Assembly (NCBI GenBank): GCA_964585155.1
Contig: CAZPCQ010000001.1
Location: forward strand, 8,070 to 72,069
DNA length: 64,000 nt
DNA from: an uncultured Candidatus Saccharibacteria bacterium
Lineage (GTDB): Bacteria; Patescibacteriota; Saccharimonadia; Saccharimonadales; Saccharimonadaceae
Reading direction: 5' to 3'
Under the pieces are notes generated by a model, which saw only the letters and a program-made list of their open reading frames with translations, searched no databases and was not told the DNA's origin. Positions within the stretch are counted from its first letter, which is position 1, and each line of letters begins with the position of its first letter. Positions 2,418 to 64,000 of the stretch are shown here, one piece after another. The position numbers were made by a program, and so were the translations under genes.

Positions 2418-5400
2418 ATGGCTACCGATACCAGAAAATCCACCAATGAGCTACAAGGCGGCGATCAACCGCTTTATCAGCCATGGAATGATTTTTCCGG
2501 TAGACCTCAAACCAGTCAAAGCCAAGACGATGTTCAAGATAACGGTCCTACCACCAGTAAAGAGAATTACGACAACGACCCTGGTTTTTATCGCAACTCC
2601 CGCGCCAACTCCGCCGTCAACACCCTTCGTAATGCCGAGAATGGCGCCTTATCCAATCGGGAAGCCGAATCTTCCTTATACACCGGTCAAGGTCGCAACA
2701 CCAATGCCAAATCCAAAGCCAAAGGCGGCAAGAAAAAAATCGGCGCTCTTATCACCATTCTTTGTATTCTCGGCGGTGGCGCTGCCTTCCTTGGCTCCTC
2801 CAACACACTCCTGCTCGACGCCGTCAATACTCTATTTACTAATGCCACTGATTATCAATACAGCCAATTTTCTCAACGTATTCTCAAACTTGTCGGTTTT
2901 AATATGGATAGCGATGATATCGTTATTACCGAAAAAAGTTGGACTGGCGCCCTTAAGTACAAACATATGTCCTCCGAATTCGAACAAAACCTCGCCAACG
3001 CCGGCTTCACTTTCGAAGGTTCCGGCGGCAAAAAAACCATGACCTGGACTTATGACACTGGCGACGGCACCACCATAACCCGCTCCGGCATCACCGCCAG
3101 CGAATTCATCGACTTATATAACAACAATGTTGACTTTCGCGGCAAATACAGTCTTGCCGCCGACAACCGTGCTATGACCGCTTTCGACGCCAGCGCCAAT
3201 GGCTCCTATCGCCACATCGGCAACACTCGTAATACTTTTAATGATTTTGAAGATACTGGCAATAACGAAACCAATCTCAAGAACTATCAAGATACCGTTC
3301 GCCCCAAGTTTGATGGCGATAGTACTACTCTCCAAACCTCAGGCAAACAAGAAGTCACCGAATACGTTGATAAATTAGATGCCAATGGCAATCCAGTTAT
3401 CGAAAATGGTCAAGTTGTCAAAGAACCAGTTACCAAAGAAGTACGACAATCCGCCTCCGATTCCGCTACCACTTCTTCCTCCGTTGATGTTGATGGAGCC
3501 AGAAGTATGATTAATAAAGTCTCTGGTGCCGTCAGTGATACTGGCAACTTCTACTGTGCCGCCATGAAATTCGGCAATATGATTTCTATGGCCATTGCTG
3601 GTAACGAAATCTATCAATCCATCCAATTCTTTATGACCCTCACTGAACCCCTCAGTAAGACCAAAGCCGGCTTCGGCGACCAGGCGCCCGTTCATCAGGT
3701 CCTCAACTGGTTTAGTACCAAAGCCGACACCGAAGTTAGTAATTTCGGCACCTTCAAGATCTCTGGCCAAGGCAAGCAGACTATCGAAGCACTTAGTCAA
3801 TCTGGCTCACCACTCGAATCTAACGGTATGCGCAATATCCTCGCTAATGCCGCACCCAATACCAAAGAAGTTAGCTCTTTCTCCCTCGAACGCGTCGACA
3901 ACTCCATCACCGGCCAGCTATCCAGTCTCGCCACTAGTAGTGATACCGCTGGTAATTGCGCCCGCTTCAGTATTACCGATAGCATAGTCTCTATCGGTCT
4001 CACTATTGCAAGTGGCGGTCTCACCAAGATTTTTGCCAACGTCATCGGCAAAGCCCTCATCGGCACCGCCATATCTGTCGCCATCAGCACCTTCTTTTCC
4101 TTCTTAACACCCACTATTCAAAACGCTTTCTTCACCAACGCTTTTGACAATGCTAAAGGTCAACCTGGCGGGGAATTATTTGCTCGCGGCAGCGGCGCCA
4201 TCGGCTCTCAAAATGCCCGTCGCAACAGCGGTTACGGTACCGCTTCCAAAACTAAAGTTATGCAATACAATAAGACTACCAACGCCGTACTCGCCCTCGA
4301 CGCCGAAGTTGACCGCCAGCGTCGCAGTCCTTTCGACATTAGTAGTCCCAATACCTTCTTTGGCAGTATCGCTTATAGTCTATTACCCACTCTCACCTCC
4401 ACCAACCTCACCGGTATTTCTTCTATCCTTACCTCCACCATGTCTTCGCTTTCTACCCTTATTGGCGGCGTTCACGCTGATGGCGAAAACTCCTCCTATA
4501 TGACCACTTTCGGCGAATGCCCTGCCCTCGAATCTATCGGCGCTACCGGTGATATGTATTGCAACCCTATACCTGTTCCCGACACTTCTACCGCCGACAT
4601 CACCCCTGACGACCAAAAATATCAAGAAGTCCTTAAAGAAGCCCAAGAGTGCGACAGTGAGGGTAACTGCACTATCAAACCCGAATCCGATCTCGCCAAA
4701 TACATTACATATTACGACGGTCGCGACTCACCTCTCGGCGTCGTCGATCAAAACATCCTCGCCGCTACGCAGCCCAGCAGCGATACTGGCATTATAGGTA
4801 CCGTCCTCAACCAAATCCCTATCGTTGGTGATATTATCAACATAGTTGACTCCGGTGCCGATATTGTAAATCTCCCCTGGGCCACTGGCGCCATCGGCTC
4901 CCAAAACGGCGGCGATAGTATCGCCAACCTCCTCGCCGCTACCGACGAAGTCGACTATAAAAACTGGTGGAACGAAAAAGGTAAATATTACCAACGCTAC
5001 GTCGAAGATTCTCGTATTCTCAATATGATGGGCGCCTACGAAGCCACCAATTCCAAAGATCCCGTCCTCGCCTACAAAGAAGAATACGAGCAAAAGTATC
5101 TCGAAGAACACCCCGAAGCCAACACCTACATCGGCTACCTCTCCCGTGTTTCCGGCCTCACTATCGAAAATACCGAAACCACTCTCGCCTTCATTGGCTA
5201 TCTCAATTATATCGATCAATACGACCCCACCCTCCGCATCGCTATGGACGGCGACACTACCGAGATCAAAACCGCCACCCAAATCGCCGCCATAGCCGCC
5301 GAGGATTATCACGCCATTTATTTCGAAAATGATAATCTAGAAACTACTTTCACTGAGCCCATTATCGCCAACCACCACATCATTTACGCCGACGTTCGTA

Positions 5401-9781: not shown

Positions 9782-9914
9782 CTTTTACCTCTAATCTTTC
9801 CCTGAAGAGAATGAATTTTGAGTTAATACGCGGAAAAAGTGAAGCACGCAAGCGAACCGTATTTGACATACGGAGAGCGCGTACTGGAACTTTTGACAAA
9901 GTAGTAACCAAAAT

Positions 9915-11021
9915 TCAACTCTTCAACGGCATTACTATATGAATGTAATTATTACACCCCACCCCCTGCACCACCACCGGATCCAACCTATTCGCAAACC
10001 GGAAAATCACTTCATCCTCTACCGTCGCATTCAGTGCATCTAGCAAAAACCTCGAGTTTAGTGTTACTTTTCCATCCACTTCTACTTTCGTCGCAATCTC
10101 TGAGCTATTCTCTCCTAATTCATTCGCCACTGCCGCAATCGCAAAAGTCCCATTTTCTACACTCGTGCTGCACACTACCGACCCACCTACTTCTCGCGCA
10201 AACAATGCCGCTAATTTTGTCACTCTGATCAACTCGCTTTTACCTAATTCCACTTTCACTTCCGATTCTTTCGGGATTAACTGTCGATAATCAGGGAACG
10301 AACCATCCACCAATTTTGAAGTTACCTCAATTCCATCTAAGCGGAACTTCACTTGCGTCTCGTCAAACAATATTTCCACTTCTTCCATTTCATCACTGAG
10401 CGACCGCATCACTTCCTGTAGCGACCCCGCCGGCACAATTGCCGACACTTCCGCCTCTACTTTATCCACCAGTTTACGCTCTGCCAGCCTATATCCATCC
10501 GTCGCCGCCACATACAGTCCACCTTCAAAAGTATTAAAATACACCCCAGTTAGCGCCGGTCGCGTCATATCACTACTCGCCGCCATCATCACTTGTCCCA
10601 GCCCCGCCTTAAATTCTTCCGCCGGCACCCGGAAACTCACCATTTTCTCTTCCTCTAATTCTGGCAATTCCGGAAAATCATCCGCCAACGCTCCATTAAT
10701 CATCGACCGACAAGCCCCCGCTTTCACTTCCACTTTCGTCCCATCCGCCGTAATTTCCACCATCTCACCCCTCGGTAGATTACTCACAAACTCCGCTATC
10801 AGTTTCGCCGGTACTGTCACTACTCCATTTTGACTATCCGTTACCGGTAACACACTCATTACTGCCATATCCAAATTTGTAGTGGTTAGACTTACTTTCT
10901 TATCTTCCACTCTTACTAATACATTGCTTAAAATCGGCAAAGTTGCCCGAGATCCCGCTGCTACTCGGCTCACATTACTTAAAGCCTTCGCCAACTTTTC
11001 CTGCAAAATCTTAATTTCCAT
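9915..11021 (-). CDS. dnaN: DNA polymerase III beta clamp
   Basis: LPILSNVL, RPALTG, AATDGYRLAE, GSFPDYRQLIP, IVMPL. Confidence 0.97.
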   Translation of the reverse strand: MEIKILQEKLAKALSNVSRVAAGSRATLPILSNVLVRVEDKKVSLTTTNLDMAVMSVLPVTDSQNGVVTVPAKLIAEFVSNLPRGEMVEITADGTKVEVKAGACRSMINGALADDFPELPELEEEKMVSFRVPAEEFKAGLGQVMMAASSDMTRPALTGVYFNTFEGGLYVAATDGYRLAERKLVDKVEAEVSAIVPAGSLQEVMRSLSDEMEEVEILFDETQVKFRLDGIEVTSKLVDGSFPDYRQLIPKESEVKVELGKSELIRVTKLAALFAREVGGSVVCSTSVENGTFAIAAVANELGENSSEIATKVEVDGKVTLNSRFLLDALNATVEDEVIFRFANRLDPVVVQGVGCNNYIHIVMPLKS

Positions 11022-14117: not shown

Positions 14118-14212
14118 TCCGAGGCGACGAACCGCCCCTGAAGCGGGGCCTAAGACTTGGCCGAGCGGCCCGGAGCGGCCCCGCGGAAGGGGTGGGAGTG
14201 CAAGCCATCGGA
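14118..14212 (+). repeat. Structured repeat family A, short copy inside a larger nested inverted repeat
   Basis: GGCGACGAACCGCCCCT..CTAAGACTTGGCCGAGCGG..GCGGCCCCGCGGAAGGGGTGGGAGTGCAAGCC, flanked by a perfect 19-bp IR (14068-14086/14248-14266). Confidence 0.85.
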
Positions 14213-16456: not shown

Positions 16457-18229
16457 TCACCGCGCCACGCATCTCACTGAAAGACCGTCATAACGGTTAC
16501 CATAACCACCGTTCTGTGCTGTGGGGTTTACTGAACTGCTGAAGGAGAGAACATATGATATAATATCGCTAACAGCACTATCGGATGACCAGTAATCGCC
16601 GCGAGAGCCAGCTTCTGTCATAGTCCCATGATACATATACCCACTGTATACGAAGAAAAGCGGCGCCAATCTGATATCGTATTGACCACTAGATAAGGTG
16701 CTCTGAAGGTTATATTGCGAGAGAAGGAAACCGAAAGATTTGCTGGATGTCTTATTATTGCCTATTGGTAGACGCCATCCCCTTGGACATATACTTCGTG
16801 AAGCAGATGCTTTGTCTGAAATATTCTGCGCCTCATTGGCTGTTGTTGCTCCCCAAGAGTAGTAATTACCTGATAAATAATGCGCGTCATACTCTTTATT
16901 AGTAACTACCTGGTTCCCCATATCTTTATAGAAATTAGGATTATCTGATGGAGTTAACGATTGTACGTTTTTCCATACATCTGCACATCCAGATAACGCA
17001 CTACCAGCGGTCAAATCACACTTTTTTATGGAAGTAGGATTTGAAAGTGCATATACGCCAGGGTTATAGTATTTCACCAAATTGGCGGTGTTTTGACTAC
17101 CGGACCAGAACCCACTCGCCCCCGTCGTCGACTTCCAGCTCCCCACTGTTTCCGGAATATCCGAATCCGCACTCGTCAGCGTCCTCCCGTTCAGATCAAG
17201 CGCCAAATTCTGCGTCATCCAACAGTTGCCATCCGCTAACTTCGCAATCCAGTAATACTTGCTATCTCTCGCATCCTTCACTCTTGCTGTATCACCTATC
17301 AGCGCCGCATCGCACACTCGCCACGTCATATCTTGCATTGTCGGCAGGGAAGATAGATTGACTACTTCTTTCGCATCTGTCGCTACACTCAGTGTGATAT
17401 TTGATTTATAGTGATCCGCTTTCGCCCCTTCCATATTTGCCGCGAACGCCAAAGTATATGGTTGTGTCACGTTGGTCAGTTGACTTCCATCACTTTTCTT
17501 CACTGTATCCGCCGCTATCCCTACTGTTGATTGGATTGCTTGATAAGTCAAACTCGCCGGGTCCGCATTATGACTTTTTGCCACCGCATAACCCCACTGC
17601 ATCGCGCCAATTCCATTCGCTGCTGTCGCTGTTGCGATACTACTAATTACATCCGGATTATTTGGTGTCGCACCGGTCAGCAAAGTACTGTCCGCCTGCA
17701 CGAACACTTGATATTGATCTACGTTGTTTGCTCCCACTGTGAAGTTTATGCTAATATATTGCGCTCCACCACTACTAGATACAGGCTGCGTGATAGTATT
17801 GTTATCCATTGCCGTGTCAATACTTAGTGCTACTCCTTTTTCCGGCACCGTTAGCGCTTGCGTATCGATCAAATTTTCTGTGTCACCCTCAGTTGCTGAT
17901 ACTTCACTTATTTGAGTAGGGAATATCATCATTCCGATTAACCCAACCAGAGCCAATGACGCCATCGCCGGCAAGCCTAGAGGAATTATCTTGCCCACAA
18001 TACGACTTTTCTTATGATTTAGACAAAATTCTTGGCGAGGGTCGCTCCCGAACTTTTCCACCACTCGTCCAGCCGCTTGTGTTTTCCTAAAGAAACTCTT
18101 ATTCAACTTATTTTTGTAGAAACAAGTACGTTTATCACTACGAAGAAGATGTGATTTTTGCTTAAGTTTTTCTGCACAAGAAACATTACTTTCTCGCACA
18201 GAATAAGTTTTCTTTATTCTATGCCTCAT
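16457..18229 (-). CDS. FISUMP (Fib_succ_major) domain surface protein 1
   Basis: LADGNCWMTQNL, GNYYSWGA, ICPRGWRLP, GDYWSS, GLSVRCVAR; TM helix; RBS AAGGAGG before MRHRIKK. Confidence 0.8.
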   Translation of the reverse strand: MRHRIKKTYSVRESNVSCAEKLKQKSHLLRSDKRTCFYKNKLNKSFFRKTQAAGRVVEKFGSDPRQEFCLNHKKSRIVGKIIPLGLPAMASLALVGLIGMMIFPTQISEVSATEGDTENLIDTQALTVPEKGVALSIDTAMDNNTITQPVSSSGGAQYISINFTVGANNVDQYQVFVQADSTLLTGATPNNPDVISSIATATAANGIGAMQWGYAVAKSHNADPASLTYQAIQSTVGIAADTVKKSDGSQLTNVTQPYTLAFAANMEGAKADHYKSNITLSVATDAKEVVNLSSLPTMQDMTWRVCDAALIGDTARVKDARDSKYYWIAKLADGNCWMTQNLALDLNGRTLTSADSDIPETVGSWKSTTGASGFWSGSQNTANLVKYYNPGVYALSNPTSIKKCDLTAGSALSGCADVWKNVQSLTPSDNPNFYKDMGNQVVTNKEYDAHYLSGNYYSWGATTANEAQNISDKASASRSICPRGWRLPIGNNKTSSKSFGFLLSQYNLQSTLSSGQYDIRLAPLFFVYSGYMYHGTMTEAGSRGDYWSSDSAVSDIISYVLSFSSSVNPTAQNGGYGNRYDGLSVRCVAR

Positions 18230-37368: not shown

Positions 37369-38337
37369 TCAGGTGGGGTCAGAAGGGAACGGACCAGTAT
37401 AAGGACCATTTTCCGGCTCAATCTGCCCCGTTTTTACCAGATGTTGCGTCCAGATTTCCTCCAACGCCTCCCGGTATTGCTCTTGCGAGTTCACGATATC
37501 GCCGTGCGTTGCCGGCACCGATACCTGGATCGCGTCCGCGTACAAGCCTTTTAGGGAGCTAATCTGCAGATACTCATCCTGCTCGCTGGTCACCAAGCCG
37601 ATAACGCTTCTCGTTGACGGCCTAATTGCACCATTCGCCTCTTCCACCAGGTTATATTCCCGCATTGTCTGCAGGTTATCTGACCGGCCATTCGCGTCCG
37701 GGATCAGGCTAAACCATCCCTTGATATATACCCACACACGCCGCCATGGGACTCCCCTAGTAACCGTCTTTTGCAGCTCCGGCCGTATCACCAATGTACT
37801 CGGGCACGGGTCGATCAGGACTATCCCTGGGTCATTCAAACTTGACTTCGACATCGCTTCGTGTGCCGCTAGCGCTCCCGATCCGATCGCCCAGATCGTC
37901 ACCTTGCTATAGCCATTGCGCATCACGTCGCGACTCAGCTCATTTGCCACGCCGTATGCGGTGTACTGGAATTGCTGACATTTGACTGCTTTAATCGTAC
38001 CGTGCAAATTATCCGGCAGGATTGCAAGCATATCTTCCGGTCGCGTCTGCTCACCGGCGATTAAGTAATGCACCTCGTCCGACTGGTAGATCCCCACGCC
38101 GTTTAGCGTCTCCAGCTTCGGTGGGCCATCGTACATACCAAGCCCAAGCACTCCCCTTACCAACGCAAAGGTCCCCGAGTTCGTGAACTCCGCGATGATT
38201 AGTACTATGAGCACTACGCGAAGCACTTGTCGGGATCGCTTCTCCGGCTCCCTATCCCAGAGAAAGGCGAGCCCAACGCCCAGCATCACCCACAGTATGG
38301 CCACAATCAGTCCTACCAGGAAAAATGACAACAACAT
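37369..38337 (-). CDS. Hypothetical membrane protein with a possible alpha/beta-hydrolase-like domain
   Basis: Two N-terminal TMs; VTIWAIGSGALAA and VLIDP resemble nucleophile-elbow regions; atypical codon usage. Confidence 0.55.
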   Translation of the reverse strand: MLLSFFLVGLIVAILWVMLGVGLAFLWDREPEKRSRQVLRVVLIVLIIAEFTNSGTFALVRGVLGLGMYDGPPKLETLNGVGIYQSDEVHYLIAGEQTRPEDMLAILPDNLHGTIKAVKCQQFQYTAYGVANELSRDVMRNGYSKVTIWAIGSGALAAHEAMSKSSLNDPGIVLIDPCPSTLVIRPELQKTVTRGVPWRRVWVYIKGWFSLIPDANGRSDNLQTMREYNLVEEANGAIRPSTRSVIGLVTSEQDEYLQISSLKGLYADAIQVSVPATHGDIVNSQEQYREALEEIWTQHLVKTGQIEPENGPYTGPFPSDPT

Positions 38338-38660
38338 TATTACCCCTCCTAATTTTTTGTCTTCTGATCTGATTTCACTGGATAACCGCAGTAGAACTTG
38401 TATAACTACCTGGTTTATAAAGTCCCACTTCGGTCTTTGCTGGATTTTTGCTGGTTTCTGCTATGTCTGGCCCATCCGCCAGAGATTTTCCCACCTTTCT
38501 TCTAGTAAAATTGATTTCAAAGAACCTCGGGTCACACCCAACCTTCAAATTATAGCACACTTCACCAAACATTTCAAGTCTTGCCAAAACGCTTATGCTG
38601 TGCTACAATAAGCTCATCGCTCTGCTAATGAGCCAAAAGTTGATTTTTCTATAAAGATTT

Positions 38661-38870
38661 TGAGGGCGGCGAACCGCCTCTGGAGCGGGACCTAAGACTT
38701 GGCCGAGCGGATTCCGAACTGCCGAGAATAGCGAACAGAAAGAAAAGTCTTTGAGTAGTATTCTATATATCATACACTTTATTAGACTTTTCTTTCTTAA
38801 GCGACGCAGGCAGCATGTGGCGCCAGCCACTGCAGCGGTCCCGCGGAAGAGGTGGGAGCGAAAGCCCTCA
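38661..38870 (+). repeat. Structured repeat family A, full copy
   Basis: Aligns end to end with 62221-62430; ends 6 bp from the galE stop codon. Confidence 0.9.
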
Positions 38871-38876
38871 GGAAAA

Positions 38877-39896
38877 CTATCTCAATTTCAACCCTTGCTC
38901 TTTCAAATACTTCAAAGTATCCTCCATCGCCTCATCCACTGTCAGCTCTGTCGTCCAGTGGAGTTCTTTTTCTGCTAATGTCGGGTCGGCATAGAACTCC
39001 GGCAAATCCCCCGCTCTGCGTCCCACGATCTGGCAGGGAAGTTTACGCTCACTTACCCGGTCAAACGCCTCCACCATCTGGAACACCGATCGCCCCTCGC
39101 CCGAGCCCAGATTATAGATTTGCACCCCTGCATCCATATGATTCAGCGCCGCCAAGTGTCCCTTCGCCAGGTCTACCACGTGGATGTAGTCGCGAATGCA
39201 ACTTCCGTCCGGCGTCGGGTAATCATCCCCGTACACCGACAACTGCTTCATCTGCCCCGTCGCCACCTTCATAATAATTGGCATCAAATTATTCGGCTTA
39301 TCATTCGGATCCTCACCCAGCAATCCCGACGGATGCGCTCCAATCGGGTTAAAATACCTCAAAATCGTCACCTGGAACTCCGGATCTGCCACCGCCACAT
39401 CCTTCAAGATTTCCTCGATCATATATTTCGTCCGGCCGTATGGGCTCGGGATCTCTTGCCCGGTCCGCATCGTTTCCACCAATTTTGGCGAATCCTGCAC
39501 TCCATATACCGTCGCCGACGAAGAGAACACGATCGCCTTGCAGCCAAACTCCTGCATACATTCCAGCAAGTTGATCGTTCCACCCACGTTATTCTCATAA
39601 TACCTTAGCGGCTGTTCTACCGACTCCCCTACCGCCTTCAGTCCGGCAAAATGTATCACCGCATCATACTCCGTCTCCGCAAATACCTTCGCCAGCGCCT
39701 CCGCATCCCTGAGGTCCACATTGTAAAATTTCGGCTTCGCTCCCGCGATCTCCGCAATCTTGTCCAGTACCTCGATCTTACTATTGTAGAGGTTATCCAG
39801 TATCTCCACCTCATATCCTGCCTGGATTAACTCCACCGCCGTATGCGACCCAATATACCCCGTCCCCCCTGTGACTAAAATCTTCTTTTTCTCCAT
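38877..39896 (-). CDS. galE: UDP-glucose 4-epimerase
   Basis: LVTGGTGYIGSH, HFAGLKAVGES, FSSSATVYG, YGRTK, LRYFNPIGAH. Confidence 0.97.
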   Translation of the reverse strand: MEKKKILVTGGTGYIGSHTAVELIQAGYEVEILDNLYNSKIEVLDKIAEIAGAKPKFYNVDLRDAEALAKVFAETEYDAVIHFAGLKAVGESVEQPLRYYENNVGGTINLLECMQEFGCKAIVFSSSATVYGVQDSPKLVETMRTGQEIPSPYGRTKYMIEEILKDVAVADPEFQVTILRYFNPIGAHPSGLLGEDPNDKPNNLMPIIMKVATGQMKQLSVYGDDYPTPDGSCIRDYIHVVDLAKGHLAALNHMDAGVQIYNLGSGEGRSVFQMVEAFDRVSERKLPCQIVGRRAGDLPEFYADPTLAEKELHWTTELTVDEAMEDTLKYLKEQGLKLR

Positions 39897-40139
39897 CTTA
39901 TTCCTATCTTACCATACTTTTCTCTATTTTGCCTAAAATCCTCCCCAGTCTCTCGCCTTGCAAATTCAACCACCTATGGCATTGCTCACCACATTCTCTA
40001 AAAAACACAAGCAAAATTCAATAATACCTATCTCGCCCCTTGCCAAATCCCGTTATTCTATCCTCCCTGACCATATTCTCCACAAAACACAAGTTATTCA
40101 GCCCAATCCCTGTTGCAATTTTTTGAAGACTGTGTTATG

Positions 40140-40325
40140 ATGGAGCAATAGCGACAAAGCGCCGTTTTTGTCGCCAAAAAGAGGGCTATCTGTACTAATA
40201 GGGCCAAATATTAGTTTTTTACATAAAGATTTTAGAAATAAGTACTTTTATCACTATGAAGAAGATGGTTATATAAAATAATACAAATTTCTTAAACTTT
40301 TCCGCAGGTAGCCCTCTTTTTGTAT
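40140..40325 (+). ncRNA. Candidate small RNA antisense to FISUMP mRNAs (or remnant of a FISUMP 5' end)
   Basis: Promoter-like TTGCAA..TGT-TATGAT; 13-bp IR (40166-40178/40309-40321) followed by Ts; 28 nt identical to 42084-42111. Confidence 0.4.
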
Positions 40326-40519
40326 TCCGCGGTCCGCGCAGGGAATTATGAAAATAAACCTTACCGAGATCTCAAACTTATGCCAATATAGAATCAGCGA
40401 GGCGTCCTAGTGTGTATTTCTTTAGGCTTAGCCCTCCGATTTTTTTGTTTAGGTTTCAGGAAAATGAGTGCCGGCAGGAGTGTCAGCACTCAACAAAACG
40501 CTACTTAAAAATAATGCGC

Positions 40520-42178
40520 CTAGCTGCCAGTAGTAAGGCAGCGAATTGACTGTGCGAAAGTCTGTGACGTGCCAGAGGATGTTCCCGCATAGTTAGCAGT
40601 AAATGTAAAGGCGTTAGCATCATTTCCATTAGGTATGGAGGTCCAATATCCCCCTTGCTTGCCTACATCATCATAGTCAGCCCCATTGCTGTATCGTCCG
40701 GCAGGCACTAAGTATTGTGGTGAATGCCGCAAAGTTCCATAATCACTACCCGTCACTGAGACTACGAAACTAGTAGGTAATTTCCATCCTTTAGGGCATA
40801 TATCACCATTCCCGCTAGCAGCACCAACGTTGCTACCACGAGTATTACTTGCATTTGCTGTATTATATGGGTAGTAATCGCCAACAAGATAATGAGTGTC
40901 TGTATTATTGGGGATACTTCCATTAAAGACCTCGAAATATGCTGTACAGGTAATAACTGTCCCTATATGGCAACCGGTCGATGGCATAGCTGCTGTGGCG
41001 CTAGATGGTTTATATATGTATGTGCCAGGATTATAGTAATTACCTAAGTCTGAAAACGTAAACACAGAAGGTACATTAGTGTCTTCCGGTTTCAATGTAG
41101 TCCCTACAGACAACGGCAAATCAAGATTTTGTGTCATCCAACAATTTCCGTCTTTCAGCTTGCCAACCCAATAAATAGTTTTGCCTAATCCACTCGTAGT
41201 GCGATCATCTACAAGTTGGATTTGGTCTCCGACTGCCATATTTGAGCAGACGGTCGGATATTTTGCGAACTCTTGCATTGTTGTTTCGCCACTTATTACA
41301 TCCAAAACGTCCCACTCATTCGGTAATACGGATAAAAGTACATTTGAAGTATAATGGCCAGCAACTTTATCTTTGCCGAATTTTGCTGCAAAGGAGATCT
41401 TAAGGGCTGCGCCAGCTCCCCCGGTACTTTTGTCAGTAGTATAACTTTCGGTCTTAGTTGGTTCTACTTCCGGCATAGTGCTATATTGTAAACTGGAATC
41501 AGCTTTGCTGGATTCTGCTATTGCGTATCCCCAAGTATTGTCTGCAAAATTATTGGGGGACACATTTTCTCCTACTCCAAATAACACATCGGGCGCTTCT
41601 TGGTTTTGCAATTTGTTAGAGTTTGCCTGTACATATACTTTGTAGCCTTGTGTTCGGCACGCTGTCACTGTAAAATCTTTTGAGAGATAGCTGACTGCAT
41701 TATTGGCAATATCGTCGTCTACACTCTTACTTAAATTTACATCTCCGGTCATATCAAGCGCTAAAACTGGTTTTCCGGCGGCACACTCTTCTGCTGGAGT
41801 TTCCGCATATACTCTTTCTCCGCCAACTCCCACTGGAAATATCATTAAACCTAATACCAAAAGAAGAGCAAATGAGGCTAGTACTAGAGGAATAGTACTA
41901 GGTCTAAGCGACCCAACTCTTCCTTTCCTAAGAAACCGTCCGCAGCGCCACGAGCGAGGAAGAGGTGGCTCGCACCCGTAACGACGGGCTGCGAGAACAC
42001 CGCGTTTCGTGGAAAGTGAAGAGTTGAGGTCGCTTGCGTCAGAGAACTTATCATTACTTGGCTTATCTTTGTAGAAATAAGTATAAGTACTTTTATCACT
42101 ATGAAGAAGATTTTGTCCATCACTAACGCAATGTAACAACGTACTTAAGTTTGGTATTTTCTTTATTCTATGGCGCAT
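40520..42178 (-). CDS. FISUMP domain surface protein 2
   Basis: LKDGNCWMTQNL, GDYYPYNTA, ICPKGWKLP, GGYWTS, QSIRCL; starts MRHRIKK like protein 1. Confidence 0.8.
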   Translation of the reverse strand: MRHRIKKIPNLSTLLHCVSDGQNLLHSDKSTYTYFYKDKPSNDKFSDASDLNSSLSTKRGVLAARRYGCEPPLPRSWRCGRFLRKGRVGSLRPSTIPLVLASFALLLVLGLMIFPVGVGGERVYAETPAEECAAGKPVLALDMTGDVNLSKSVDDDIANNAVSYLSKDFTVTACRTQGYKVYVQANSNKLQNQEAPDVLFGVGENVSPNNFADNTWGYAIAESSKADSSLQYSTMPEVEPTKTESYTTDKSTGGAGAALKISFAAKFGKDKVAGHYTSNVLLSVLPNEWDVLDVISGETTMQEFAKYPTVCSNMAVGDQIQLVDDRTTSGLGKTIYWVGKLKDGNCWMTQNLDLPLSVGTTLKPEDTNVPSVFTFSDLGNYYNPGTYIYKPSSATAAMPSTGCHIGTVITCTAYFEVFNGSIPNNTDTHYLVGDYYPYNTANASNTRGSNVGAASGNGDICPKGWKLPTSFVVSVTGSDYGTLRHSPQYLVPAGRYSNGADYDDVGKQGGYWTSIPNGNDANAFTFTANYAGTSSGTSQTFAQSIRCLTTGS

Positions 42179-42590
42179 CTGCCCTCCTTGTGGGTATTAA
42201 TTATCGCCCCGCAGCCGCCATCTTTGAGGAGGGCCAACTCCATACAAAAATGGCGCCGCGAGGCGAAACCACAATCTAGAAGCAATCTGCTCAAGAACGT
42301 TAGCTTTCTCGTGACGCCATTTTCACGTTCTCAAACAAATACACTCAAATAAGCAATTGTCATAATTCCAAATTGTGATTTCGCACTTCCAATTATATAT
42401 CAAACTGTCTGCGTTTTCAAGCATTTTTCTCGCCTCCCCAGCGAGCTGACGTACGTATCATAAGTTTCATAACCCACTCTTTAGCAGTTAGGATTAAAAA
42501 CCTTCAGAGCTGTCAACAACACGGCCTCCTAAGGCAGATACCTCCTCCTCTCCATCTCTCCTCTAGCGAATTAATCTTGATATTATGCTC

Positions 42591-42746: not shown

Positions 42747-42915
42747 TTCGCATATATTATTTTAATTCGCCTAAAAAATAAAAATCCTTTTCCATTTTTT
42801 ATTTTCGATATTAATTATAAAAACTATTTCCAAAAACTTTTTATTAATTTTTTGGTTTCAAAAATCTAAGAATATCCTCCTTTCCCAAACCCCCAATCTA
42901 TGCTATACTTATCTT

Positions 42916-44343
42916 ATGAAACGGGACACGGGTTTGATTTTCCACGCTTTCCTGATTTTGGGTGACGCGTGCGCGATTTTACTGTCCTTTTTGGCGGCTT
43001 ATTTTATGCGCACTCATTTGGACCAACGCCCATTTTATTTTGAGGCTGACCCTTGGCGCTTCGTTTTGTCAATGCTGGTTATGGTCCCCGTTTATCTTCT
43101 AATTATGGCTGCCCTCGGGCTGTACAAGAAATCCGTTTTTCTCAGCAATAGTCGCTGGCACGAAATCGGCCGCATTTTCCTCGCCTCTGTCATTGGGATG
43201 ATGGCGATTATCACCTGTGACTTCTTCTTTTCCACCGACCTTTTCCCGGTCAAAGTTATGGCATTATATGCTGTTTTCACCTGTTTTGTCTTGCTTAGTC
43301 TTTTCCGCGGTGGCGTCCGCCTCGTCCGCAGTTTTGCTCTCAAGCACAGCCACAAAGCCGCTCTTCGTGCCATCATTGTCGGCAATAGTCAAAATACCGA
43401 GTACCTCGCTGACTACATCTCCGCTTATCCCGAGTCTGGCTTCCGTCTTGCCGGTATAGTCGCCTCGCAGAAATATATCCCCAAAGATCTCCGCCGCAAA
43501 CAATATTCCTCTCTCAAAGAGGCCTTGCGCAAGGCCCGCCCCGACGTTATTTTCCAAACCGATGAGCGCCGTACTGATTACGTCTATCGTCAGGCTGTCA
43601 ATCGTCATCTCTATTATTATTTCGTGCCTTCTAGTGCTGCTCTTACCGCCCAGACCGGAGAAATGGAGCTCGTCGGCAGTACCCCGGCTATCTTAGTCAA
43701 AGTCACCCCTCTTGCCGGCGGTGCCCGCTTTGCCAAGCGCTGTTTCGATCTGTTTTTCGGGTCGATTATTTTACTGCTTGCCCTCATTCCGATGGTTCTC
43801 ATCTGGCTAATCGAGAAGATCTCCGATCCACACGCCCCTGCCGTCTATAGTGATATCCGCCTCTCCCGCTATAACAAGAAGTTCAAGATTTACAAATTCC
43901 GCTCCATCAAGTCAGAATACAACGGCCTCACCCCAGAGGAGGCCTTCGAGAAAATGGGCAAACCTCAGCTGATCAAAAAATACCGTGCCGGCGGCGATAT
44001 GATCCCTAACGACCCTCGTATCACCAAACTCGGCCACTTCCTCCGCGCCACTTCGCTGGACGAATTGCCGCAATTGTTTAACGTTGTCAAAGGCGACATC
44101 TCTCTCGTCGGTCCCCGTGCCCTCGTCCCCGGAGAACTCCGCCATTACGGCGATCGCTCCCTCCTCCTCTCGGTCAAATCTGGGCTTACTGGCCTCGCCC
44201 AAGTCTCCGGCCGCCGCGACATCGGTTTCGACGAACGTCGCGCCCTCGACCTCTATTACATCCAAAACTGGTCTATCTGGCTTGATCTCCGCATCCTCCT
44301 CCGCACGGTTGGCGCTGTTCTACTCTGTAAAGGGGCGAAATGA
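42916..44343 (+). CDS. Polyprenyl-phosphate sugar-1-phosphate transferase (WcaJ/WbaP family)
   Basis: KRCFDL, FKIYKFRS, DPRITKLGHFLRATSLDELPQLFNV, SLVGPR, DLYYIQNWS. Confidence 0.93.
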   Translation: MKRDTGLIFHAFLILGDACAILLSFLAAYFMRTHLDQRPFYFEADPWRFVLSMLVMVPVYLLIMAALGLYKKSVFLSNSRWHEIGRIFLASVIGMMAIITCDFFFSTDLFPVKVMALYAVFTCFVLLSLFRGGVRLVRSFALKHSHKAALRAIIVGNSQNTEYLADYISAYPESGFRLAGIVASQKYIPKDLRRKQYSSLKEALRKARPDVIFQTDERRTDYVYRQAVNRHLYYYFVPSSAALTAQTGEMELVGSTPAILVKVTPLAGGARFAKRCFDLFFGSIILLLALIPMVLIWLIEKISDPHAPAVYSDIRLSRYNKKFKIYKFRSIKSEYNGLTPEEAFEKMGKPQLIKKYRAGGDMIPNDPRITKLGHFLRATSLDELPQLFNVVKGDISLVGPRALVPGELRHYGDRSLLLSVKSGLTGLAQVSGRRDIGFDERRALDLYYIQNWSIWLDLRILLRTVGAVLLCKGAK

Positions 44344-62056: not shown

Positions 62057-62166
62057 TTAGCACTCTTGCATTGTGAGTGCTAATGTGCTACAATAGAGGT
62101 AAGTTGGCAATCGCAATGCCCGACTGCCAACTAAATTAAATAGCACTATTGACATTCGAGTGCTAG
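62057..62166 (+). promoter_or_regulatory. Three CIRCE/CIRCE-like HrcA operators
   Basis: TTAGCACTC-N9-GAGTGCTAA (62057, perfect); TTGGCAATC-N9-GACTGCCAA (62104); ATAGCACTA-N9-GAGTGCTAG (62140). Confidence 0.88.
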
Positions 62167-62217
62167 TGAATTAGAATAATAAAAGATGAAGTTTAATAAT
62201 TTGACGTAGAAAATGAT

Positions 62218-62433
62218 TTTGAAGGCGACGAACCGCCCCTGGAGCGGGGCCTAAGACTTGGCCGAGCGGATTCCGAACTGCCGAGGATAGCGACTAGAAA
62301 GAAAAAGTCAGTACGTATCAATATATAACCAATGTAATACAAATGACTTTTTCTTTCTGGAGCGACGCAGGCAGCACGTGGCGTCAGCCACTGCAGCGGC
62401 CCCGCGGAAGGGGTGGGAGTGCAAGCCTTCAAA
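62218..62433 (+). repeat. Structured repeat family A, full copy in the dnaK leader
   Basis: TTTGAAGGC..GCCTTCAAA termini; homologous to 38661-38870. Confidence 0.9.
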
Positions 62434-62479: not shown

Positions 62480-64000
62480 ATGTCAAAAATCATCGGTATC
62501 GACCTCGGCACGACCAACTCCGCTTTTGCGTATATGGTCGCCGGTAAGCCCGAAGTTATTACCAATAGCGAAGGCGACCGCACCACGCCGTCCGTCGTCG
62601 CTGTTACTAAGAAAGGCGACCGTCTCGTCGGCAAAGTCGCCCAGCGTCAACGCGTCACCAATCCGCGCAACACTATTTATGGTATCAAACGTTTGATTGG
62701 TCGCAAATTTGACGATAAAGAAGTCCAGCGCGACCTCGACATTATGCCTTACAAGATTGTTAAGAAAGGCAATGGTGTCGCCGTCGAGATGGATGGCAAG
62801 GAATATACTCCGGAGGAAATTTCCGCAATGATTCTCAGCAAAATCAAGGCTGACGCGGAAGCCTTCCTCGGTGAGAAAGTTACCGAAGCCATCATTACTG
62901 TCCCGGCTTACTTCAACGATTCTCAGCGCCAGGCTACCAAAGACGCCGGCAAGATCGCTGGCCTCGAAGTTCGCCGTATTATTAATGAGCCGACTGCTGC
63001 TGCCTTGGCTTATGGCCTCGAGAGCAAGAAGGACGAAAAAATCGCCGTCTTCGACCTCGGTGGTGGTACGTTCGATGTGAGTATCCTTGACATCGGCGAT
63101 GGCGTCTTTGAGGTGAAATCCACCAACGGCGATACTCACCTCGGTGGTGAAGATTTCGATAACGTCATTGTTAACTTCTTGCTTGACGAGTTCAAGAAAG
63201 AATCCGGTATCGACATTCGTGACGATGCTGCCGCTATGCAGCGTGTCAAGGATGAGGCCGAGAAAGCCAAGAAGGAACTTTCCTCGACCACTTCTGTTGA
63301 GATCAACTTACCTTTCTTGACTGCTGACGCCGATGGTCCAAAGCATTTCGAGTATACTTTGACTCGTGCCAAGATGGAAGAATTAGTTAAGCCACTTCTG
63401 AACCGCCTCGCCGATCCAGTCGAGAAGGCCCTGAAAGACGCCAAACTCACCGCCAAAGACATTGACGAGGTCGTAATGGTCGGTGGTATGACCCGTATGC
63501 CTGCTGTCGTCGAAGAAGTCAAGAAGATCTTCGGCAAAGACCCCATGCAGGGTGTCAACCCTGACGAAGTCGTCGCCGTCGGTGCGGCTATCGAAGGTGG
63601 TGTCTTGCAAGGTGATGTGAAAGATGTTCTCTTGCTTGACGTTACTCCGCTTTCCTTGGGTATCGAGACGATGGGTGGCGTTTCCACTAAGTTAATCGAG
63701 CGCAATACTACCATCCCTACCAGCAAATCCGAAGTCTTCTCCACCGCCGCTGACAATCAGCCGCAGGTCGAGATCCACGTTTTGCAGGGTGAGCGCGAAA
63801 TGGCCGCCGACAACAAATCTCTTGGTCGTTTCATCCTCGATGGTATCGCTCCCGCTCCTCGCGGCATCCCTCAGATCGAAGTTACTTTCAACATCGACGC
63901 CAACGGTATCTTGAACGTTACCGCCAAAGACAAGGGTACCGGCAAAGAGCAGAGTATCACCATTCAGAACTCTGGTAATATGAGCAAGGAAGATATCGAG
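62480..64000 (+). CDS. dnaK: Chaperone DnaK (3'-truncated by the window; not in the ORF track)
   Basis: [41 protein letters not shown]..; RBS AGGAGG. Confidence 0.98.

Follow-up and report, generated by a model that had tools for sequence, protein, structure and literature searches.

Trans-encoded small RNAs (sRNAs) that repress the mRNAs of envelope proteins are well known from the Enterobacteria, in which MicC (acting on ompD), RybB and MicA pair with their targets, in some cases inside the coding region. Antisense control is also exerted by RNA-OUT of IS10 on RNA-IN, with RNA-OUT encoded in cis, opposite its own target. In Mycoplasma pulmonis, the paralogous vsa surface-protein genes carry a vrs box in their 5' coding regions, with HvsR as the recombinase. 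Antisense regulators can also derive from pseudogenes or paralogs, a concept described chiefly in eukaryotes. Few regulators are known in Saccharibacteria, which are tiny bacteria that depend on a host; we know of no sRNAs described in the phylum, and a literature search found no regulatory small RNA described for Saccharibacteria, and nothing on the gene family considered here.

The locus in question lies near 40 kb in the window, by which is meant the whole 64-kb stretch of DNA that was analysed. It carries the antisense of a conserved box found in genes for FISUMP-domain surface proteins, and the reading that we favour, as somewhat probable on the sequence evidence, is that the element is a + strand, trans-acting antisense sRNA against the FISUMP paralog family.

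Such an RNA would both resemble and depart from each of the described systems. Firstly, like the enterobacterial sRNAs, it would come from a stand-alone gene with its own (here predicted) promoter, and would have many surface-protein mRNAs as targets, with a pairing site downstream of the ribosome-binding region. However, the enterobacterial sRNAs use a short, imperfect seed, whereas complementarity here is perfect or near-perfect over 28-38 nt; the candidate's targets share one conserved box because they are paralogs. Secondly, it resembles RNA-OUT in its perfect complementarity, over ~35 nt, to a 5' region of the target mRNA, and in a stable stem-loop of which an exposed loop would make first contact, with action on every copy of the target. 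RNA-OUT is nevertheless encoded in cis, whereas this element stands at a locus of its own, opposite no gene, and its pairing would fall ~70-105 nt inside the coding sequence, leaving the start codon uncovered. Thirdly, the ~34-nt, DNA-conserved box in the 5' coding region, at which 5' ends and gene bodies have been recombined, recalls vsa and vrs. Yet M. pulmonis has a single expression site and silent copies, whereas most genes here appear to have their own promoter and start; no counterpart of HvsR was identified here, and the copies in the window are all direct; and the orphan copy of the box at 40 kb differs in its conserved, flanking RNA-like structure. Fourthly, as with pseudogene-derived regulators, the element is a fragment of a gene family, in antisense and able to pair with all members, and this is also its probable origin, but the setting is bacterial and only the 35-nt box has been retained, in a new conserved scaffold.

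The box in the FISUMP family

The 28-mer at 40239-40266 (TAAGTACTTTTATCACTATGAAGAAGAT) is identical to 42084-42111, as originally predicted, and local alignment widens this match to 29/29. The same 28-mer differs at three positions from 18123-18150, and here the predicted second match was also real, though imperfect, extending to 34/38 between 40230-40267 and 18114-18151 (mismatches in Table 1). No further matches to 40239-40266 at three or fewer mismatches occur in the 64 kb, the number expected by chance being 0 (100 shuffles). Both partners are minus-strand ORFs with weak-to-moderate FISUMP/Fib_succ_major domain hits, and the match sites fall at codons ~23-32 of the 42-kb gene and ~27-36 of the 18-kb gene, in agreement with the early coding positions that had been assigned to them.

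Both genes belong to a larger set. A box of 33-35 nt, at codons ~23-36 and ~70-105 nt into the coding region, recurs in FISUMP paralogs; its sequence is (AT)CTTCTTCATAGT(GAT)AAAAGTACTTATTTCTA, encoding LLHS(D)KSTYF directly before a membrane anchor. Dozens of homologs share the N-terminus, M-R-H-R-I-K-K..., then LLHS(D)KSTYFY, then the membrane anchor. Within the box the codons are uniform (CTT CAT AGT (GAT) AAA AGT ACT TAT TTC TAC), in a comparison that took in L001, L002, L005 and L006, as well as 18 genes in L007-L025, from unrelated metagenomes. For pairs of homologs from different metagenomes with 31-46% protein identity, the fraction of identical residues encoded by the same codon was ~0.30-0.50 outside the box, compared with, for example, 12/12, 10/11 and 9/9 inside it. 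This codon reuse bears out conservation of the motif at the DNA level, and not at that of the protein alone, and indicates that the box is constrained as a nucleotide sequence, synonymous sites included, in homologs of just 30-40% protein identity. In the source metagenomes only 40233-40269 is multi-copy, at a depth 30-40x that of its flanks, and complementarity of 28-38 nt extends to the two genes in the window and many source-metagenome contigs. The supposition that two FISUMP mRNAs are the targets therefore stood insofar as both carry the box, but the putative targets are the whole paralog family.

The copy at 40 kb is of a different kind. Read on the minus strand, it gives ...V, a stop codon, EICIILYNHLLHSDKSTYF and another stop; lacking a start codon and enclosed by stops, it is an orphan copy of the box. 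Exact DNA scans for TCTTCTTCNTAGTGATAAANGTAC gave no match in species-representative genomes or JGI metagenome contigs, and a looser box pattern gave none in viral contigs; in metagenome contigs, the looser pattern led to a second orphan, at the locus L018. A protein pattern, MRHRIKK[IT], returned 40 unconfirmed stretches and no loci across genomes. An upstream ORF ending at the TAG-TGA-TAA run, in the other frame of the box, was considered and rejected, stops being frequent upstream in that frame.

The combination of basic start, LLHS(D)KSTYFY and membrane anchor (P0001-P0062 and others) occurs in many Saccharibacteria surface proteins, is lineage-specific, and lacks a Pfam or NCBIfam model; at the protein level it may additionally serve as a sorting signal. 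Those homologs of the 42-kb protein with a named source are labelled Candidatus Saccharibacteria. The window protein itself belongs to a contig of 98 kb, and the window locus was found in four DNA runs of one study, with an animal-host species label.

The long 5' UTRs of both FISUMP genes in the window carry GGCCCTCC or TTGGCCC, complementary to an unusually long ribosome-binding site, AAGGAGGGC(C), the complementary pairs being 42227-42236 with 42181-42189 (minus strand) and a pair at 18.2-18.3 kb (minus strand). By sequence, GGCCCTCC/TTGGCCC could sequester the FISUMP ribosome-binding site, and the sRNA candidate has a loop, GGGCCAAA (40201-40208), that could act as a competitor for this anti-SD in the FISUMP UTR; the loop is not conserved in L018.

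The orphan element and its counterpart in a second species

Table 1. Positions in the window of the parts of the 40-kb element, the two partner genes and their boxes.
Feature	Position	Strand	Remark
FISUMP-domain surface protein gene, P0001, 552 aa, putative target	40520..42178	-	
FISUMP-domain surface protein gene, P0030, 590 aa, putative target	16457..18229	-	
Box in 42-kb FISUMP mRNA (LLHSDKSTY-TY-FYK), split by 6-nt ACTTAT duplication	42066..42113	-	
Box in 18-kb FISUMP mRNA (HLLRSDKRTCFYK)	18114..18151	-	4 mismatches to anti-box over 38 nt, 2 of which would be G.U
Promoter-like site: -35 TTGCAA (40113-40118), 17-nt spacer, extended -10 TGTTATGAT (40133-40141)	40113..40141	+	9/12 match, with TG
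Predicted sRNA, ~185 nt, both ends inferred	40148..40332	+	fold -56.2 kcal/mol
5' hairpin GCGACAAAG-CGCCGU-UUUUGUCGC	40151..40174	+	pairing probability ~1
Basal stem, 5' arm (CAAAAAGAGGGCUAUCUGU)	40175..40193	+	pairs with 40304-40322
Basal stem, 3' arm (GCAGGUAGCCCUCUUUUUG)	40304..40322	+	pairs with 40175-40193
Anti-box, exact antisense of the FISUMP 5'-coding box	40233..40267	+	alignment, metagenome depth
Apical loop GAAGAAG, complementary to box CUUCUUC	40258..40264	+	unpaired probability 0.99
U-rich tract UUUUUGUAUU, at or after 3' arm, possible terminator tail	40318..40327	+	sequence reading

The candidate parts of the 40-kb element are listed in Table 1. The promoter-like site expected on the + strand exists (TTGCAA-17-TATGAT, preceded by TG), but by itself the match does not exceed chance, four such promoter-like sites being found in the region against 5.5 expected. 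The + strand of 40140-40335 folds at -58.2 kcal/mol (z = -5.7 against shuffles), and the minus strand of the locus at -51.3 kcal/mol (z = -4.1). The fold departs from that originally predicted in two respects. Firstly, the left arm of the proposed stem (40166-78/40309-21) was misplaced by 10 nt, as 40309-21 complements 40176-88; the actual basal stem has 19 pairs, two of them G.U on the + strand. Secondly, the antisense motif does not sit in an open loop but in a weakly structured interior, with most of the anti-box paired internally in the predicted RNA of the window, and only the 7-nt apical loop and a few bulges unpaired. By this model, GAAGAAG is a possible first-contact (kissing) loop. 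The energies predicted for short-segment duplexes are -44.4 kcal/mol with the 42-kb mRNA and -48.7 kcal/mol with the 18-kb mRNA; short segments were used as whole-RNA duplexfold on 300-nt targets gave meaningless, over-extended duplexes.

At the 3' end, the GC-containing basal stem runs into UUUUUGUAUU in the window, and into UUUUG, a short U tract, in L018. A canonical terminator is absent, a terminator scan giving no call at the 3' end of the element in either locus, because the enclosed ~110-nt region exceeds the 3-8 nt loop limit of the scan. Rfam searches at gathering thresholds found nothing in the window except one tRNA, and at E ≤ 5 over 38300-42500 nothing except a chance hit inside galE. 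Two other interpretations of the element were discarded: a + strand small protein (a 37-aa ORF with a TTG start, 40168-40281) has no conserved counterpart in L018, and a perfect palindrome of the whole element, centred on AGTACT, is incompatible with its asymmetric interior.

The second orphan offers a comparison between species. The box was held by 19 metagenome loci, in 18 of which it lay at the 5' end of a long FISUMP-like ORF; the other was L018, from mouse-gut Saccharibacteria, in which the orphan (L018:9912-10099) reads ...NNLLHSKSTYF and then a stop. The interval is bounded by a galE ortholog (82% identical) on one side and a sugar-transferase gene on the other, as in the window. The start of the L018 transferase matches the product of 42916-44343, and P0130, identical to the L018 transferase over the 38 available residues, is 80% identical to the window protein overall. 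The window differs in that a FISUMP gene now stands between orphan and transferase. The order of parts is common to both orphans: an extended -10, the block CCG..TTTTTGTYGCCAAAARGAGRG, the anti-box, and then GGTRGCYCTCYTTTTG. In both, the match to the genes breaks off at one and the same place, after TTTCTA, where a stop follows, and each carries the box variant of its own genome, the GAT codon being present in the boxes and orphan of the window, and absent from the L018 orphan and all 18 L018-type genes. Complementarity to the L018 orphan was seen in every one of the 18 box-bearing genes found.

In L018 the extended -10 is TGCTATAAT, on the antisense strand of the box, 35 nt before the basal stem, compared with 33 nt in the window. 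It lies within a 17-mer, AATTATGCTATAATATA, that is identical to the sequence at the same position directly before the transferase ATG in L032/L033, and is therefore probably a working promoter. Consensus scans listed no sense-strand promoter upstream of either orphan, and the upstream neighbour of the L018 orphan on the sense strand is a divergent gene. No RNA run contained the window locus, those offered for it sharing just the label of the host species, and RNA-labelled runs with the L018 locus had flat, low or DNA-like coverage, in unstranded contigs.

The structure is conserved most clearly in the basal stem, of which the first 16/16 pairs are kept in both orphans. Between the window and L018 there are three compensatory double changes (40180/40317, AU to GC; 40184/40313, GC to AU; 40187/40310, UA to CG), one further pair changed from CG to UG, and two shared U.G pairs. 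These wobble positions, including that at the L018 strain variant 9948, pair on the + strand and are C.A mismatches on the minus strand, and the + strand fold is the more stable by 4-7 kcal/mol in both species. The 3' half of the 5' hairpin, CCG..TTTTTGTYGCC, is kept in L018, where the hairpin is weaker and shifted in register; conservation of the interior helices, and of the 5' hairpin as a whole, is not clear, and the L018 anti-box is predicted to be only loosely structured.

Variation between strains delimits the same element. At the L018 locus, for which contigs of at least three strain variants were compared, 2/188 sites were variable in the element, compared with 14/174 in its immediate flanks (Fisher p = 0.0014). 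The variable sites of the upstream flank are 9837, 9839, 9867, 9868, 9878, 9881 and 9910, and those of the downstream flank 10100, 10107, 10110, 10111, 10157, 10180 and 10198, so that the quiet block is bounded by 9910 and 10100, in agreement with the predicted ends of the RNA. Just two sites vary within 9912-10099: 9927 lies in a loop, and 9948 preserves pairing, A>G turning an A-U pair into G.U on the + strand. By this measure the L018 element does not evolve neutrally. With sequence and structure conserved between the two species compared, and strain variation reduced, the second-species comparison suggests that the element is no dead fragment of a gene, but encodes a conserved regulatory RNA.

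The orphan was absent upstream of the transferase gene in five other relatives, and no orphans beyond those of the window and L018 were found by fuzzy motif and arm searches of all 33 loci, or by blastn with the box-free halves. In every relative examined, the sugar-transferase gene itself has an extended -10 (TGCTATAMT) just 6-8 nt before its ATG (window 42901-42918, +; L018:10166-10183; L026 and L030-L033, just before position 5001 or 240), which implies a leaderless mRNA.

Recombination and other explanations

Sequence comparison shows that paralogs have also recombined into mosaics at the box, so that an explanation at the DNA level stays in play. Paralogs and strains have in common 100-240 nt of near-identical DNA that adjoins the box on one side, and nothing on the other; both directions occur (upstream only in L006/L019 and L009/L011, downstream only in L006/L021). 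Leader types, comprising promoter, UTR and N-terminal region, join different gene bodies freely, and vice versa, with the breakpoints at the box (L006-L025). Hence the box could be a crossover site, whether site-specific or a homologous hot spot, that shuffles 5' expression cassettes among FISUMP bodies, with the orphan a solo or 'null' site at which crossover would disconnect a gene body from its promoter; an RNA function would then be unnecessary. We regard this as unlikely, though it is the alternative that survives best. In its favour, besides the one-sided identity and free combination of types, are the palindrome AAGTACTT within the box, insertions exactly inside it, the occurrence of the box in both orientations on single contigs (L007/L018, L013/L022, L016/L020), and an integrase-family gene 1.3 kb from one FISUMP gene (L001); recombination or gene conversion at the box, which is clearly taking place, could also yield both the synonymous conservation and the matching box variants. 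However, it leaves unexplained the near-invariance of the whole 188-nt block, beyond the box, the one-strand G.U covariation of the 16-bp stem, and the promoter-like sequence at a fixed distance. Moreover, all three boxes of the window are direct repeats, so recombination between them would delete rather than invert, and no dedicated recombinase was found adjoining the window FISUMP genes. If paralogs have no other stretch of identity than the box, a mosaic pattern should in any case follow as a by-product.

Insertions ranging from 9 to ~300 nt fall precisely within the box, with duplicated T-Y or T-C codons on either side (ACTTAT...ACTTAT), at 42072-42083 (minus strand) in the window, in P0002, P0004, P0008, P0016, P0022 and P0075, and at L005:1010-1030, suggesting a preferred insertion or integration point at the AAGTACTT palindrome. 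The TYTY of the window gene looks like the footprint of one such insertion, and the 6 nt at 42077 are missing from some contigs. Just past the box of the same gene, 41876-42062 (minus strand) is an in-frame insertion of ~187 nt that forms a long hairpin (-77.5 kcal/mol, z -5.7); its depth in the source metagenomes is 10-25x that of its flanks, and it is precisely absent from one contig. As a palindromic insertion within a coding sequence, it recalls the Rickettsia palindromic elements, which likewise insert into coding regions. The integrase-family gene is a short (190 aa) member of the phage integrase family at L001:4548-5120, downstream of a box-bearing FISUMP gene.

Function might alternatively reside on the sense strand, with the element either a minus-strand mimic or decoy of the FISUMP translation-initiation region, in which an SD-like arm and the box would titrate a box-recognising protein or RNA, or the 3' UTR or terminator of the upstream FISUMP gene. 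The window element is indeed 190 nt downstream of the stop of the 42-kb gene, on the same strand, its minus strand folds well, and its 5' arm resembles the ribosome-binding site of the family, AAGGAGGGC. Yet L018 has no upstream gene on that strand, the promoter scan lists nothing for it, every stem wobble becomes a mismatch on it, and the fold is the weaker of the two in both species, making this explanation improbable.

Equally improbable is the alternative to an sRNA that had been put forward, in which the element is only the decayed 5' end of a paralog, left without function when a tandem FISUMP gene was deleted. The minus strand does read ...NHLLHSDKSTYF and then a stop, with stops on both sides and no start, and an SD-like AAAGAGGGC stands 43 nt upstream, at about the spacing of short-leader homologs; as an evolutionary origin this is plausible. 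However, homology is limited to 35-38 nt and ends at both edges of the box, the limits of the element, including TTTCTA followed by a stop, are the same in two species whose flanking proteins are 80-82% identical, strain variation is far below that of the flanks, and the stem has compensatory changes; the element is not evolving neutrally.

Least probable, to the point of being very hard to credit, is a palindromic, MITE-like mobile element that carries the box by chance: the long imperfect hairpin has inverted arms of 16-19 bp that might be terminal inverted repeats, and the genome holds other long-hairpin repeats, one inserted in the 42-kb gene, but the element occurs once in the window, its flanks and arms are single copy at ≥80% identity in four deep metagenomes and all fetched loci, so this is not a repeat family, there is no target-site duplication, and the position is syntenic in two species.

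The window does contain repeats of its own. One of ~220 nt, with a long hairpin (-89 kcal/mol, z -6.5) and no Rfam match, is present as full copies at 38650-38872 and 62212-62431 (both minus strand; 84% identical), and as a short third copy at 14123-14209, in which the conserved ends are joined and the central AT-rich hairpin is absent. One full copy begins 5 nt past the galE stop, the other lies between CIRCE-like operators and the dnaK start, and the homolog P0008 has an in-frame copy (…RCSGWRHVLSASLKKEK…SAVRNPLGQVLG…) inside its box. Two operators lie within 62070-62170, one a perfect CIRCE (TTAGCACTC-N9-GAGTGCTAA) and the other imperfect; the dnaK gene begins ~400 nt downstream of them, near 62486 on the + strand, and is cut off by the end of the window. 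An ORF on the minus strand, 62483-63139, has a Pfam NAD-GH hit (E = 1e-60), but this family derives from the strand opposite hsp70 genes, and the ORF is therefore probably no real gene. GC skew is strongly negative (about -0.15 to -0.5) across nearly all 64 kb, regardless of gene orientation, climbing to around zero only near 50-52 kb and beyond 60 kb.

A candidate RNA for control of a surface-protein family

The original prediction of a + strand antisense RNA is strengthened by the ortholog, the covariation, the position of the -10, the quiet block and the constraint on the box, although the coordinates of the stem, the open loop and the scope of two targets had to be given up. Under the antisense reading, the extended -10 promoter would drive an RNA of ~185 nt (40148-40332, + strand), consisting of a 5' hairpin, a basal stem of 16-19 bp closing a ~110-nt interior with the 35-nt anti-box, and a U-rich tract. 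The anti-box, as the complement of the paralogs' box, is the sole sequence-specific feature that the RNA would have. This RNA would pair in trans with all box-bearing mRNAs, probably making first contact through the exposed GAAGAAG loop, followed by a long, perfect duplex in the early coding region. The duplex would lower expression, either through RNase III-type cleavage or by blocking elongation with decay of the mRNA, the nuclease and the sign of regulation being taken from what is known of bacterial antisense RNAs. A single locus could thereby control the entire paralog family, having most likely originated as a paralog 5' fragment that was later kept by selection.

More speculatively, and with less conviction than we would grant recombination at the box alone, the box may have a dual role, as a junction for swapping cassettes of promoter and leader between gene bodies and a preferred point of insertion for palindromic elements at the level of DNA, and as a silencing handle at the level of RNA for a single antisense RNA from a surface-polysaccharide locus. 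If so, the display of surface proteins would be coupled to the synthesis of capsule or cell-wall polysaccharide in an ultra-small episymbiont, and the Candidate Phyla Radiation would have its first described sRNA regulon.

An antisense sRNA, if real, would explain why 35 coding nucleotides are frozen, synonymous sites included, amid divergence to ~30% identity. Even without an RNA, the box is a clear and testable recombination junction for the diversification of surface proteins. With one, the pairing of a single RNA with all members of a large, fast-evolving family would be a simple means of controlling the surface with which these bacteria meet their host bacterium, the animal host and phages.
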